Below are positions 2,992-8,438 of a stretch of 64,000 nt of DNA, piece by piece. A program made the position numbers and the translations under genes. Source of the stretch: a virus. Position 1 is the first letter of the stretch; every line of letters begins with the position of its first letter. The notes under the pieces are model-generated. The model was not told where the DNA came from. It saw only the letters and a list, made by a program, of their open reading frames with translations, and searched no databases. The stretch spans positions 18,108 to 82,107 of the IMG/VR virus record IMGVR_UViG_3300048672_000430; one strand, given 5' to 3'.

Positions 2992-3390
2992 TCACGGGTT
3001 AAATACTCGGATATCGGTCTTTAAATTATAACTAGCCATAGGAACAATTTGAACATGAACCCAATTTGTTGTTCCCTTTTCCATCCAAAGATTATACTTT
3101 TTAAGCATAGCACAATCATTTGCTATTAACCAATTGTAAAGCTCTAACTTCGGATCACTGATATCAGCAGCCTGTCCAAAAAGATGTTTCGACATTCTAG
3201 GATACTTCTTACTCTTATATATTCTTTCCATATCGGCATCATTTCTTAAACCTGAAGTTATTGTCATAGGTTTACCCCAAGCTACCCTAACTTTGTTTAA
3301 ACGATCCAATAATATAGTGAGATTAACAGTTTGTTCATCCGTACATTCAGATTGACTATGAGCCCCTAATAGTTCTTTCATCGAAATCAT
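2992..3390 (-). CDS. Peptidase M15 family endolysin
   Basis: ITSGLR, SKHLFGQAADI (SxHxxGxAxD), WVHV. Confidence 0.85.
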   Translation of the reverse strand: MISMKELLGAHSQSECTDEQTVNLTILLDRLNKVRVAWGKPMTITSGLRNDADMERIYKSKKYPRMSKHLFGQAADISDPKLELYNWLIANDCAMLKKYNLWMEKGTTNWVHVQIVPMASYNLKTDIRVFNP

Positions 3391-3668
3391 ATTGACTCCT
3401 GAGCCTTTTTAAGCTCTTTATATACTCTATAATAATCAAGATAAACAGGTTCATTATTCTCTTTACAGGCTTCAACATACACACCTATAATATAGATACA
3501 ACGTTCAGCAACCTCATTTAACTCTTCTATTAACGACTCTAACTCCTCTTCATACTCAAGAATTAAAGAAGGATCAGAACAATTAGAAAGCATCTCTCTA
3601 ACTTCGGCTATATCATCCATGACATAACCTAATAACTGTATCTTCTTATGAATAGAGGAATTATACAT
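3387..3668 (-). CDS. Hypothetical acidic helical protein
   Basis: ORF coupled to neighbours. Confidence 0.55.
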   Translation of the reverse strand: MYNSSIHKKIQLLGYVMDDIAEVREMLSNCSDPSLILEYEEELESLIEELNEVAERCIYIIGVYVEACKENNEPVYLDYYRVYKELKKAQESI

Positions 3669-3671
3669 TAT

Positions 3672-3884
3672 CTACCCTTTAGAACGTAATTTCTGCATCC
3701 TAACTTTCATTTGTTTACGTACACAATCACTACACTTCCTACCAACCCATAGGTCACCCTTATCATCTACCCATTTCTTATTTCTATTATCAGGGTACTT
3801 ACCTACTTGCACACGTAGTTTGATCTCTTGACAAACTGAACATTTACTCATGTTTTGTTCTAATTTTACTTCATCATTTTCCAT
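3672..3884 (-). CDS. Small zinc-finger protein
   Basis: CSVC and CSDC pairs; GAGGTG RBS; late motif upstream. Confidence 0.6.
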   Translation of the reverse strand: MENDEVKLEQNMSKCSVCQEIKLRVQVGKYPDNRNKKWVDDKGDLWVGRKCSDCVRKQMKVRMQKLRSKG

Positions 3885-3992: not shown

Positions 3993-4484
3993 CTATTTCC
4001 GTTTCTTCACCCACTCCATCGTTCTATCGTTCAGAGCATATACCGGCTGCACTAGATCCACTCCAACATAATACTGAGCAACAAAACCCTTAGCTTCATC
4101 CATGTTCTCAAAAACCCCAACAACGGTCTTATCCTTTCTAATATTCTCAATTACAACAAACACAGCAGGTATACTACAATTCACTAGGATCTTGGGTTTA
4201 TATTTTGAATAGCTAATTTTAGCCTTAACAACATCAAACCCGGCAGTAACATACTTCTCAACATAATACTGAGAGTAAATTTGTTTATATAACAACTCTT
4301 CTGTTTTTAATAAAATTTTTATATAAGATCGATCGCCCACTAATTCTGGAAAATCATCCAAAATTTGACCTATACGAGATTTTAGGTTATTTGCATATCC
4401 AACGTAGCATTTACTAGAAACAGGGTTAATAATGGCAAATACGCAACTATTAGGTAGACTATGGAGAGTATTGATGAAATTCAT
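3993..4484 (-). CDS. Degenerate GIY-YIG-like domain protein
   Basis: CVFAIINPVSSKCYVGYANNLKSRI resembles GIY...YIG...LxxR. Confidence 0.55.
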   Translation of the reverse strand: MNFINTLHSLPNSCVFAIINPVSSKCYVGYANNLKSRIGQILDDFPELVGDRSYIKILLKTEELLYKQIYSQYYVEKYVTAGFDVVKAKISYSKYKPKILVNCSIPAVFVVIENIRKDKTVVGVFENMDEAKGFVAQYYVGVDLVQPVYALNDRTMEWVKKRK

Positions 4485-4727: not shown

Positions 4728-4943
4728 TGGCACGGATCTTGCAGGGATATGCAAGTATCATGCCGGCACGGTAATTGCTATATATGCAAGAAGTATGCCA
4801 AGTGCTAAGTGTCCAATATTGTAGGAGTTCTGGGGTAAGTGGTTGATATGTGATGAAATTATTTGGTATTGATGTTGCTATATATGCAAGGGGCATGCCG
4901 AGGTTTACCCGGTTGAGGGCAATTTTTTGGCATCGATTTTGCA
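4728..4943. promoter_or_regulatory. Array of seven sigma54 (-24/-12)-type sites in alternating orientation
   Basis: +4728 TGGCACGGATCTTGCA; -4750..4765 CGGCATGATACTTGCA; +4764 CGGCACGGTAATTGCT; -4785..4800 TGGCATACTTCTTGCA; +4864 TGGTATTGATGTTGCT; -4885..4900 CGGCATGCCCCTTGCA; +4928 TGGCATCGATTTTGCA. All are GG-N10-GC. Confidence 0.8.
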
Positions 4944-5128: not shown

Positions 5129-5286
5129 TGTTTCAAGGCAAGCAACTAAGCTTGTCGGTAACGAGAGGTTAGAACATGGTAGCGGTGGTTGTAGTGATTT
5201 TTGTTTCATACTTTTTATTAGAAGTTGTTGGAATATAAAAAAAAGCTATAGGTTCCCGTTGTGGATAGTTTTTCAATATGTACTTA

Positions 5287-5298
5287 CATAGTTGTTAA
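5287..5298 (-). promoter_or_regulatory. Late promoter motif copy TTAACAACTATG pointing into the control region
   Basis: 11 of 12 match to the motif; no adjacent leftward gene. Confidence 0.45.
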
Positions 5299-5319
5299 AT
5301 CAACTTTAAAGGAATTGTT

Positions 5320-5574
5320 ATGATAAAAAGTAAAGAGCAGATGAAATTTGAAGCTATGAAAAGAAAACAAGTACTTGAGGCGAAAAGTAAAAATAACGCC
5401 TTTAATAAGGCGGGGAATGTTAAGACAAGTTTTGGAAAATGTAATAAAGAGTATTTAATTAACATGGGATTTTATGTTAAAGGAGAAAGAAATAAACCGA
5501 GTAAATCGGCATGGGTAGAAAAAAGATTAGATAAAAATATAATTGAAGTTGACTTAAGAAAAAAGTCATGCTAA
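5320..5574 (+). CDS. First early gene, highly basic hypothetical protein
   Basis: AAGGA RBS; Lys-rich; ends just before twister 1. Confidence 0.65.
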   Translation: MIKSKEQMKFEAMKRKQVLEAKSKNNAFNKAGNVKTSFGKCNKEYLINMGFYVKGERNKPSKSAWVEKRLDKNIIEVDLRKKSC

Positions 5575-5578
5575 TATA

Positions 5579-5639
5579 AAGTAAGTAAAGCAACTGAGAT
5601 CGGTCACAAGTCCGACTGAAAAATGCTGAGTGATTATTT
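5579..5639 (+). ncRNA. Twister ribozyme (type P1), copy 1; predicted cleavage U5586/A5587
   Basis: P1 AAGUAA/UUAUUU, U^AA, P2 GCA/UGC, T2 AC/GU, P4 UCGG/CCGA with loop U-CAC-AA-GU, GA, T1 CAC/GUG. Confidence 0.85.
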
Positions 5640-5877
5640 AAACAAAGTACCAAAATAGGTACTATACTCAAAGAACATGATTCGGGTAGACCCCAATCCT
5701 AGGGCTTTGAATGAAACACTCACGAACCACGGCGAAAAACGCTGAAAGCTTGACAATGCAAATTGTCTGCATCGTGTAAGAAAAATGCTTATGAACCACA
5801 AGTGATCGAAAAGTCGGTGGTTGCAAGTGAAGGCTACATCATGTAAATGATGAGAGATAACCATTAAGCATTGTTTT
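5587..5877 (+). ncRNA. 291-nt structured RNA released by the two twister cleavages (candidate circular RNA)
   Basis: Bounded by the two predicted cut sites; multiple helices, GCAA and GUAA tetraloops; no long ORF on this strand. Confidence 0.7.
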
Positions 5878-5929
5878 AAACATACAATGTCCTGTTGCAA
5901 GTCAGGCTGAGAAAATGTGAGCAAAACAA
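5871..5929 (+). ncRNA. Twister ribozyme (type P1), copy 2; predicted cleavage U5877/A5878
   Basis: P1 UUGUUU/AAACAA, U^AA, P2 CAU/AUG, T2 AC/GU, P4 CCUG/CAGG with loop U-UGC-AA-GU, GA, T1 UGC/GCA; compensatory changes versus copy 1 in P1, P2, P4 and T1. Confidence 0.9.
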
Positions 5930-5949
5930 AATATAAACCGAGGTGATTT

Positions 5950-6189
5950 ATGTATGAACAACATCGAATCGAATTGATTCGTTCAATACGTATTTACTTA
6001 TCTATGTATAAGGTATCTAAATTAGAGAATTATTTGGATTCTGCGGTCAGAGTAATGAAACAACTAGATGATCTAAATAAGGAAAATATAAACGAATATA
6101 AAAACCTAGTGAATCTTCAAAATAAAAGAGATGAGCTAAATAATTTCTTAGATCAAACAAATAACACTGTATTTTTAAAAGCTTCTTAG
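5950..6189 (+). CDS. Hypothetical early protein
   Basis: GAGGTG RBS. Confidence 0.65.
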   Translation: MYEQHRIELIRSIRIYLSMYKVSKLENYLDSAVRVMKQLDDLNKENINEYKNLVNLQNKRDELNNFLDQTNNTVFLKAS

Positions 6190-6198
6190 GAGTATGTA

Positions 6199-6324
6199 AT
6201 GGAAAAATTCTATGATCGATTTAATGAAATGGAATATAGTGATTATATTGAGGAAAATGATTTAGACTTTGACTATGAAGACGACGATGAGGAAGATCAA
6301 TTTATTTACACTGATAATTTTTAG
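6199..6324 (+). CDS. Very acidic 41-aa peptide (possible nucleic-acid mimic)
   Basis: MEKFYDRFNEMEYSDYIEENDLDFDYEDDDEEDQFIYTDNF; AGGAG RBS. Confidence 0.65.
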   Translation: MEKFYDRFNEMEYSDYIEENDLDFDYEDDDEEDQFIYTDNF

Positions 6325-6898: not shown

Positions 6899-6977
6899 CC
6901 TTTGATTAGAGTAATGTTACTTATCTATTATCTACTTACAATATTAATTTTAATGACATTTATTAAATACTTATGAG

Positions 6978-8438
6978 GTGAAAATGAACTTAGAATCATT
7001 TACTGTTAAGGGTACAATAATTCAAACAAATAAAGACTTATATGGTGGTGGATATGGTGGCACATATATTTATAAGATCGTAAAGAGTGCCAAATTAAAT
7101 CCAGATAAAACATTCCTAACTAATCAACCAATTCTTGTAAACGAAGACAACAGGCGAATATATCCTTATCTAACAAATTCTAGATTATTAGAATTAAATA
7201 TTAAAGAAATCAAATGTGAAAAAACAATAAAAGAATTTAATAAAATTTTAGTTGACTCGAAAAGGAAAAATGCCTTTAAAAATCTAACCAACGGTATTGT
7301 AGAAACTTTAGGAAGCGACCCTGAAATTTTTGTGGTAGATGAAAACGATAAAGTAATTCCTTCTTATGAATTTTTAAATGGTAAAGATAATCCAAATTTA
7401 ACAGGAACATACAAGGAATTTAAAATAAATGGTAATTGTGGTGCAAATGTAAATCAAAAAATGTTTTGGGACGGTTTCCAAGCTGAATTTAATACAGATG
7501 CTCAAAGTTGTTTAGCCTGGGTATGTGACTCGACTGTACTCGGTTTACAATCCGTTTTGAAAGAAGCAAAAAAGTATAATCCAAATGCAAGATTAACAAT
7601 TCAAACAACAGTAGACATTGATAAGAATGTTCTAGATAACGCTAAACCTGAACATGTAGAGTTCGGTTGTATGCCATCGTTTAACGTATATAATATGTCA
7701 GGAATCAAGGCAGATGGTAGGTCGGTATCATTTAGATCAGCAGGTGGACATATTCACTTCGGTATGAGTGACTTAACTAAAACGAAAGCTAAAAGATATG
7801 TAAAGGCACTAGATAAGATTCTAGGTGTTGCATGTGTTTCATTGTTTAATACTTACGACGACCCTAGAAGACGTACTATGTACGGATTAGCAGGTGAATA
7901 TAGATTACCTGCACACGGTTTAGAATATAGAACATTAAGTAATGCGTGGTTATCTCACCCGCTTATTATGAATCTAGTATTTGAAATGGCTAGAAAGGTA
8001 ATAGGTGCAGAAGAGGACGAACAAATGCAATTCTGGGATTCAACAGAAGAAGAAACTATTAGATGTATCAATACATGTGATGTTGATTTAGCTAGGGAGA
8101 TTTTAGCAAGAAATAAAACAAACCTGATTAATCTCTTAAAATCTATAAGTTCTATAAGTTATAATGAAAATGCTGAATATATCTATAAAATTTTAATGTT
8201 AGGTATGCAATCGATCATTGAAAATCCTGATGATATATCGGGTAATTGGTCATTCGAAAATCTTTATAAAGGTCATTGTGATGCAGACGGTATGCAACTT
8301 ATTACAATAGATAATATACCAAATTATAGATTATTAAAAGATGAGAAGGTTACTGCGATATATGAACAACTAGCATTTAATATTAAGCAATTAGATAATG
8401 ATGAGGAAACTATGACATTGAAAGAAGTTATGGGGTAG
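6978..8438 (+). CDS. phiEco32-like COOH.NH2 ligase type 2
   Basis: TLGSDPEIFV, FGCMPSFNVY, RSAGGHIHFG, RRRTMYGLAGEYR, GLEYRTLSNAWL. Confidence 0.88.
   Translation: MKMNLESFTVKGTIIQTNKDLYGGGYGGTYIYKIVKSAKLNPDKTFLTNQPILVNEDNRRIYPYLTNSRLLELNIKEIKCEKTIKEFNKILVDSKRKNAFKNLTNGIVETLGSDPEIFVVDENDKVIPSYEFLNGKDNPNLTGTYKEFKINGNCGANVNQKMFWDGFQAEFNTDAQSCLAWVCDSTVLGLQSVLKEAKKYNPNARLTIQTTVDIDKNVLDNAKPEHVEFGCMPSFNVYNMSGIKADGRSVSFRSAGGHIHFGMSDLTKTKAKRYVKALDKILGVACVSLFNTYDDPRRRTMYGLAGEYRLPAHGLEYRTLSNAWLSHPLIMNLVFEMARKVIGAEEDEQMQFWDSTEEETIRCINTCDVDLAREILARNKTNLINLLKSISSISYNENAEYIYKILMLGMQSIIENPDDISGNWSFENLYKGHCDADGMQLITIDNIPNYRLLKDEKVTAIYEQLAFNIKQLDNDEETMTLKEVMG

Follow-up and report, generated by a model that had tools for sequence, protein, structure and literature searches.

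A 64,000-nt stretch of DNA from an uncultured freshwater phage (positions 18,108 to 82,107 of IMG/VR record IMGVR_UViG_3300048672_000430, an 82-kb record that is 96% complete; this whole stretch is called the window) contains a folded RNA at 5640-5877, called the cargo, between two twister ribozymes. The fold of the cargo is real, conserved and formed by the plus strand. We hold with reasonable confidence that 5640-5877 is a structured non-coding RNA gene in a ribozyme-punctuated early operon, which would be excised as a 291-nt trans-acting, probably protein-binding RNA. Since twister pairs bound genes in two other viral loci and comparable hammerhead units have been published, an RNA gene in a punctuated operon is the simplest reading, and we rate the finding as a new RNA family within a known type of ribozyme-punctuated operon.

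Conservation and covariation of the cargo

Homologous cassettes were identified in three loci, namely the window, L016 (a 13-kb IMG/VR fragment) and L057 (an 81.5-kb record), the last two belonging to other uncultured phages. In each of them the order is twister, cargo, twister on the operon strand, and the cargo is 238, 244 and 236 nt long, respectively. Independent minimum free energy (MFE) folds of the three cargos gave one shared architecture. The z-score of the MFE is -3.7 for the window and -4.4 and -4.3 for the homologues, and for each cargo none of 100 dinucleotide shuffles was as stable. The GC content across 5600-5839 is 0.41, compared with 0.26-0.31 in the flanking genes.

The helices are maintained by changes on both sides. 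In the gapless alignment of hairpin H1 and domain 2 (Table 1), 10 of the 21 pairs are compensatory (changed on both sides) and 95.2% of the cells are paired, while slid partners gave 17-49% and none of 500 shuffles reached the observed paired cells or both-side changes. RNAalifold predicted 53 pairs for the window and L016, including 12 compensatory ones. When a helix table was made for all three sequences, with the register of L057 set from the structure by us in domains 3 and 4, which are past sequence alignment, 187 of 192 cells were paired. Its 64 pairs comprise 41 compensatory pairs (one with an unpaired cell), 17 invariant pairs, 2 one-sided pairs and 4 that are otherwise invariant with an unpaired cell. 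Compensatory changes are present in every domain. Alignments A6, A7 and A8 misplace gaps in domains 3 and 4 and were left out of the counts.

As a control, the domain 3 and 4 helices of the window were threaded on the homologues with free sliding. On L057 all 39 pairs could be formed (mean 34.6 and maximum 38 among 500 dinucleotide shuffles), and on L016 38 of 39 pairs, which 16 of 500 shuffles equalled. In the nhmmer search with the cargo profile, L057 was matched at cargo positions 1-94 only (E 1.4e-9), so domains 3 and 4 of this locus are independent of its discovery.

The z-scores of the 376-nt region do not separate the strands (-2.14 for plus, -2.72 for minus). What favours the plus strand is the presence of 8 G-U cells in the helix table, together with the way in which the twisters and the genes are oriented. 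Minus-strand open reading frames (ORFs) of 96 aa in the window, 70 aa in L016, and 37 and 60 aa in L057 were considered and rejected, as they are antisense to the operon, cross the twisters and vary in length. An earlier note on this DNA, made from the letters of the window, had taken GNRA loops as support for the plus strand. Such loops do occur in the window, but neither GCAA nor GUAA is kept in L016 or L057, and the idea of a GNRA tetraloop with a receptor was dropped for the same lack of conservation.

Architecture of the folded RNA

The cargo is a five-way junction made of a closing stem H0, a hairpin H1 and domains 2, 3 and 4 (Table 1). A-rich strands join the helices, and the motifs GAAWCACU and GAAA are conserved. 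The MFE folds of both the window and L057 show H0, whose 4 pairs are the same in all three sequences. Domain 2 is the most conserved part, and domain 4 of L057 had no part in the discovery of that locus.

The earlier note had described a four-domain non-coding fold at 5646-5872, which is the portion of the 291-nt product beyond twister 1. All the helices that it listed were located when the sequence was checked: the hairpin at 5646-5663, domain 2 at 5668-5710, the three-way junction at 5721-5776 and domain 4 at 5786-5870, which the note had extended to 5784-5872. In domain 2 the stems GAUU/AAUC and GGG/CCC stand, but the loop is UAGAC (5 nt) instead of UAGA plus an unpaired C, because of the covariation GAA/UUC in L016. 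The fold as a whole was borne out. An Rfam scan, which the note had suggested, places the cargo in no family, and conserved structure at twister-pair homologues, which it had also proposed to look for, is present and covarying in both L016 and L057.

Several other readings of parts of the fold were tried and rejected. Candidate pairings of a pseudoknot between J2/3 and the domain-4 linker, found by eye, are inconsistent across the three sequences. A tRNA-like reading was dropped because no tRNA or tmRNA gene was found in the window. The GGUUCGAAU string of L016 belongs to covarying stems, not to a T-arm. The strings AAACA.../...GUUU and GAAACAC resemble the hairpin ribozyme, in which a G is required after the cut. 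A ligase core of this kind was rejected, as the post-cut junction base is A and the Rfam search at E up to 10 gave no match to the hairpin family.

Table 1. Features of the cassette and its neighbourhood (window coordinates unless another locus is named)
Feature	Position	Strand	Description
Basic-protein gene	5320-5574	+	84 aa; first gene of the rightward operon; no known family
Sigma-70-like promoter match	5549-5577	+	TTGACT, 17 nt, TAATAT, TG; 9/12 plus TG
Twister 1	5579-5639	+	type P1, without P3; predicted cut U5586/A5587
H0, 5' strand	5640-5645	+	AAAC (extendable AAACAA); pairs with 5873-5876 (extended 5871-5876)
Hairpin H1	5646-5663	+	6 bp, conserved AAMAUA loop; 3/6 pairs compensatory, 100% of cells paired
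Domain 2	5667-5711	+	outer stem, internal loop, GAUU/AAUC, GGG/CCC, loop UAGAC; 7/15 pairs compensatory
Micro-ORF	5677-5745	+	22 codons (L016 43, L057 19); no Shine-Dalgarno
Junction strand J2/3	5712-5720	+	holds conserved GAAWCACU (alignment)
Domain 3	5721-5776	+	three-way junction: outer stem CACGA/UCGUG, two hairpins; 11/16 pairs compensatory (helix table)
Junction strand J3/4	5777-5785	+	A-rich, UAAGAAAAA
Domain 4	5786-5870	+	long outer stem, one-base bulge, two enclosed hairpins; 20/23 pairs compensatory (helix table)
Twister 2	5871-5929	+	type P1, without P3; predicted cut U5877/A5878
Acidic-protein gene	6199-6324; L016 1861-2031; L057 2976-3188 (minus strand)		small, very acidic protein

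The flanking twisters and the predicted product

In order to identify twisters strictly, we used a descriptor that includes AA after the cut, a 4-bp P2, the T2 dinucleotide, P4 and an exactly complementary T1 pseudoknot. All six twisters of the three loci match it, with T1 being CAC/GUG, UGC/GCA or UGU/ACA. For example, twister 1 of the window has AA, P2 with 4 of 4 pairs, T2 AC/GU, a 4-bp P4 and T1 CAC/GUG, and its 6-bp P1 was read by eye. Twister 2 matches as well, and its T1 pseudoknot covaries with that of twister 1 (UGC/GCA versus CAC/GUG). Among the six twisters there are five different P2 helices, so both T1 and P2 covary. These core features of the ribozymes, like the fold of the cargo, its conservation and its covariation, are observed.

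The predicted cuts are 291 nt apart and lie between co-oriented genes, and the same layout is found in L016 and L057, where the predicted products are 299 and 304 nt long. Some 20 nt separate the end of twister 2 from the start codon at 5950, and in all three loci this twister lies just 5' of the ribosome-binding site of the next gene. The 5' strand of its P1, GUUU, doubles as the 3' strand of H0.

In twisters of type P1 the cut falls at the 5' edge of the ribozyme, and each therefore remains on the RNA downstream of its cut. As twister 1 is of type P1, its complete core forms the 5' domain of the predicted product. In the proposed process, the operon transcript would be cut by both twisters. 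Twister 1 would cut at U5586/A5587 and stay as the 5' domain of the product, while twister 2 would cut at U5877/A5878 and stay on the downstream mRNA just before the ribosome-binding site. The product is expected to be a 291-nt RNA with 5'-OH and 2',3'-cyclic phosphate ends. Its 5' end would lie inside the compact twister fold and its cyclic-phosphate 3' end at the foot of H0, and with both ends tucked into structure the RNA should be long-lived. Cleavage, end chemistry, stability and trans action are what we infer from the observed features.

The conserved multi-domain fold and the conserved junctions suggest a trans-acting, protein-binding role, and the 291-nt RNA probably acts in this way. 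Early in infection, it could serve as a scaffold for a phage protein, for which the 84-aa basic protein is the candidate, or as a decoy for a host protein. The scaffold idea, already raised in the earlier note, is compatible with the presence of the basic-protein gene in the same operon in all three loci.

Homologous loci and searches for more

L016 was reached through a neighbouring 486-aa ligase-like protein, and also through two Rfam twister matches in 1 of 12 related records. L057 was reached with a twister-loop pattern, which matched 64 viral stretches, and then with nhmmer. In L057 the cassette follows the gene of a small acidic protein, while the order is the other way round in the window and L016. 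The cassette thus sits at another place in the operon of L057, yet both twisters and the cargo are kept, indicating that the three parts travel together.

A covariance model (R1) was built on 5640-5727, the first 88 nt of the cargo. On the 12 related phage records it matched only the record of L057 itself. On 65 sources it recovered the three loci and one weak match at 2842-2926 of L029 (20.3 bits, E 0.097). L029 is an unrelated 170-kb viral contig, which also has a twister.

The cassette is rare, with 3 loci in IMG/VR. Queries of IMG/VR by the basic protein or by alignments of it either stayed empty or led back to the same two contigs, and DNA patterns gave L017 and L057 only. No match was found in the cultured-phage collection by the window DNA, the L057 cassette DNA or the basic protein. 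The protein alignment found nothing in the JGI metagenomes, and the twister-core pattern matched 7 stretches there, all of them GC-rich coding DNA with no twister context, which we regard as chance. The one match in GTDB genomes lies within a coding region of a Taishania metagenome-assembled genome and is also attributed to chance. The three phages are syntenic relatives. By DNA polymerase, the closest cultured relatives share just 33% identity.

Two side observations on twisters were made in these searches. Viral contigs frequently carry a twister variant whose loop is UCACAAGU and whose T1 partner is GAGUG, in place of the UCCCAAGCC and GAGGG that the Rfam consensus has. Among L026-L088, the 64 IMG/VR stretches, many of its copies have a near-identical CCUUAAUGCAAC start after a GC-rich hairpin.

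Comparison with known families and systems

Searching the whole window against Rfam gave no match at the gathering level. With E up to 10 in 5200-6200, the sole cargo match was Ms_IGR-2, on the minus strand, with 13.7 bits and E 4.6, and in L016 and L090 only twisters were matched.

Hammerheads that flank single genes or short gene blocks in prophage and phage transcripts have been published (Perreault et al. 2011, PMC3088659), and the authors suggested that such units might be processed into RNAs of unit length or into circles. As in those units, two same-strand self-cleaving ribozymes bound a short unit in a polycistronic phage operon here; the differences are that the ribozymes are twisters and that they enclose a structured RNA in which we see no credible protein gene. 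In open-access literature text, we found no description of a DNA phage with a non-coding RNA bounded by ribozymes.

Among the 64 twister-bearing loci, L036 and L087 also carry a pair of twisters on one strand, at a distance of 346 and 388 nt, respectively. The pair in L036 (about 6910-7299, minus strand) bounds a membrane-protein gene of about 91-100 aa, and the pair in L087 (about 3293-3727, minus strand) bounds a gene for a 71-aa Cys-rich protein; both genes have a Shine-Dalgarno sequence. A third twister lies further along in each of these loci, and the contig numbers of the two phages match many other twister loci.

The flanks share with the type-P1 twister family (RF03160) the helices P1, P2 and P4, both pseudoknots, which covary, and the N-A cut site. 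Unlike the family, the flanks in the window are without P3 and stay below its gathering score, and the cargo itself is no twister. The engineered Tornado cassette, attributed to Litke and Jaffrey in 2019, reportedly pairs a twister of type P3 with one of type P1, an arrangement that removes both ribozymes from the product. The phage cassette is similar in that an RNA lies between two twisters leaving 5'-OH and 2',3'-cyclic phosphate ends and a stem brings the ends together. It differs from Tornado in that both twisters are of type P1 and twister 1 is kept in the product, where it could re-open a circle.

ROOL, raiA and drum RNAs, as described in the accessible part of PMC5737381, also have a conserved multi-domain fold with conserved junction nucleotides and were found by comparative analysis. 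The cargo has no sequence or model similarity to them, its ends are set by ribozymes instead of a terminator, and it is very rare. A supposed occurrence of drum RNA beside ribozymes is contradicted by the same part of that paper and was discarded.

Operon context

The basic-protein gene is located 5' of the twister cassette in the same operon in the window, L016 (1233-1481) and L057 (3310-3573, minus strand). The 84-aa protein has no match in Pfam or PHROG. An exhaustive search among 1.84 billion proteins led to 10 cluster representatives, and a word-indexed search led to 3 proteins. ESM Atlas gave no usable look-alike; the Atlas model has low confidence, with a pLDDT (predicted local distance difference test) of 0.42. 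Between the stop of this gene at 5574 and the start codon at 5950 (5575-5949), no plus-strand ORF of at least 30 aa was found.

The sigma-70-like promoter match of the window overlaps the end of the basic-protein gene and finishes 9 nt before the twister-1 cut. Promoter-like sites around it are at chance level (13 found, 12.7 expected). At the equivalent place in L057 (2993-2965, minus strand) there is a perfect sigma-70 consensus (TTGACA, 17 nt, TATAAT; 12 of 12), whose -10 box overlaps the 5' strand of twister-1 P1 and ends 3 nt before the cut. Transcripts from this promoter would start 2-4 nt beyond the twister-1 cut. For L016, no promoter is listed at the equivalent place. Some phages may transcribe the RNA from a promoter of its own.

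Sigma-54-type -24/-12 boxes, defined by at least 9 of 10 specified bases, cluster on both strands at 4728-4942 of the window, 9487-9575 of L017 and 2916-2952 of L057 (minus-strand coordinates). In all three phages the cluster lies 5' of the operon with the cassette, in the divergent intergenic region. A Sigma54_activat domain is not encoded in any of the three phage records.

Two further conserved proteins are encoded nearby. A small very acidic protein, with a D/E run followed by a ...T-E/D-N/D-F C-terminus, is conserved beside the cassette; its gene follows the cassette in the window and L016 and precedes it in L057. The other, a protein of about 165 aa, is encoded by the first gene of the leftward arm (3993-4484 of the window, minus strand, and 4592-5095 of L057). 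Its gene sits across the sigma-54 region from the cassette operon in both phages, and its N-terminus has a weak GIY-YIG match (21.4 bits, with a cut-off of 22.6).

Weighing of the explanations

A number of points weigh against a trans-acting non-coding RNA that is excised by twisters. Twister 1 matches RF03160 at 5582-5636 with 38.2 bits (E 1.4e-6), which is below the gathering score of 67.2, a score that is not reached by the twisters of L016 (37.5 bits, and 57.3 bits for the twister-2 counterpart) or L057 (31.5 bits, and also 25.7 bits to the P3-type model) either. Twister 2 is absent from the Rfam output at E up to 10, although it matches the strict descriptor. Searching sequencing runs with the stretch returned one run only, a DNA sample from which the contig probably stems, and no RNA run. 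Three sequences are too few for a statistical covariation test such as R-scape, and since H0 is invariant, covariation is no test of this stem. The register of L057 that was set from the structure favours the model, so the compensatory counts are inflated there, and the threading control on this locus is a weak one because its shuffles already average so near to 39 pairs. For the micro-ORF, 17 of the 46 differing codons are synonymous, while the synonymous shares in the other five frames are 2/40, 8/43, 12/46, 9/40 and 7/43 (5-26%). The basic protein contains no recognisable RNA-binding domain, and the trans action and the binding partner are things that we infer.

The RNA could also be a natural circular RNA, in which H0 keeps the two ends close and host RtcB ligates them into a 291-nt exonuclease-resistant circle, a natural counterpart of Tornado. 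Twister cleavage yields ends that RtcB joins, so the cleavage chemistry suits this enzyme. H0, found in all three loci, sets the 3' end beside the strand leaving the twister-1 core, and the product length is conserved. However, twister 1 is complete in the product, and ligation would restore the scissile U-A step before an intact core. As P1 is dispensable for twister cleavage according to the available text of PMC11662667, the circle should re-open itself. RtcB (PF01139) is encoded in none of the three phage records, and the perfect promoter of L057 would give a triphosphate 5' end, which is unusable by RtcB. For the hammerhead-flanked prophage units, circular products were not detected, as far as the accessible text of PMC3088659 reports. 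From the above, we consider a circle of this kind unlikely, and the retention of twister 1 in the product casts doubt on a Tornado-like circle in particular.

A wider version, to which we give little weight, is that host RtcB closes the RNA into a circle, or that the retained twister lets it alternate between a linear and a circular form. It would then be a long-lived ribonucleoprotein or decoy through which the host is reprogrammed early in infection, and its cyclic-phosphate form might feed a host RtcR/sigma-54 circuit on which the upstream sigma-54 sites of the phage draw.

It is quite improbable that the RNA has a dual or coding function, with the micro-ORF translated to a small peptide and the twisters bounding a tiny gene. 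All three sequences share an AUG from which the frame is open, the synonymous share given above is in its favour, and the twister pairs of L036 and L087 do bound small genes. However, a properly spaced Shine-Dalgarno is lacking in all three sequences, whereas the neighbouring genes have GAGG or AGGA, and the AUG sits within the domain-2 helices. Neither the length nor the C-terminus of the peptide is conserved, and the double changes that preserve the helices give radical residue swaps, such as Pro to Phe. In addition, the micro-ORF covers less than 30% of a stretch which is structured and covarying throughout, and the antisense frames give similar-looking peptides too, from nucleotide conservation alone.

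The cargo might otherwise be a cis-acting element that tunes the downstream genes, either as a spacer for ribozyme folding or as a sensor that controls twister 2 through the choice between H0 and P1; we find this hardly probable. In all three loci, GUUU has two alternative partners, the upstream AAAC (H0) and the downstream AAAC (twister-2 P1), and twister 2 finishes just before the next ribosome-binding site. A spacer would nevertheless need far less than a five-way junction of about 240 nt whose junction strands and loops are conserved. Sequestering P1 would make a weak switch, given the dispensability of P1 described in the accessible portion of PMC11662667, and no riboswitch family was matched in Rfam.

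Finally, cyclic-phosphate RNAs released by the twisters might activate host RtcR and thereby fire the upstream sigma-54 sites; we consider this extremely improbable, and the RtcR/sigma-54 link, which the earlier note had raised, is speculative. In its favour, RtcR has been proposed to respond to tRNA halves with 2',3'-cyclic phosphate (PMC7790460, PMC10159003), and all three phages have sigma-54-type boxes upstream of the operon and encode no Sigma54_activat domain. Against it, the three phages are syntenic relatives, so the co-occurrence is not independent, and such a signal accounts for the RNA ends but not for the elaborate conserved fold. A structured non-coding RNA gene in a ribozyme-punctuated early operon remains our preferred reading of 5640-5877.

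Significance

Self-cleaving ribozymes are common in phages, and their purpose is largely unexplained; in the published picture they cut transcripts into gene-length messages. Here, the unit between two twisters is a conserved folded RNA of no known family and not a message. This points to a second and testable job for phage ribozymes, namely setting the ends of a non-coding RNA. The cargo, for which three sequences already give about 40 covarying base pairs, represents a new structured RNA family and a good target for studies of its structure and partners. If the RNA were circular or bound a host factor, phages would have a new type of early function, and the engineered twister cassettes would have a forerunner in nature.

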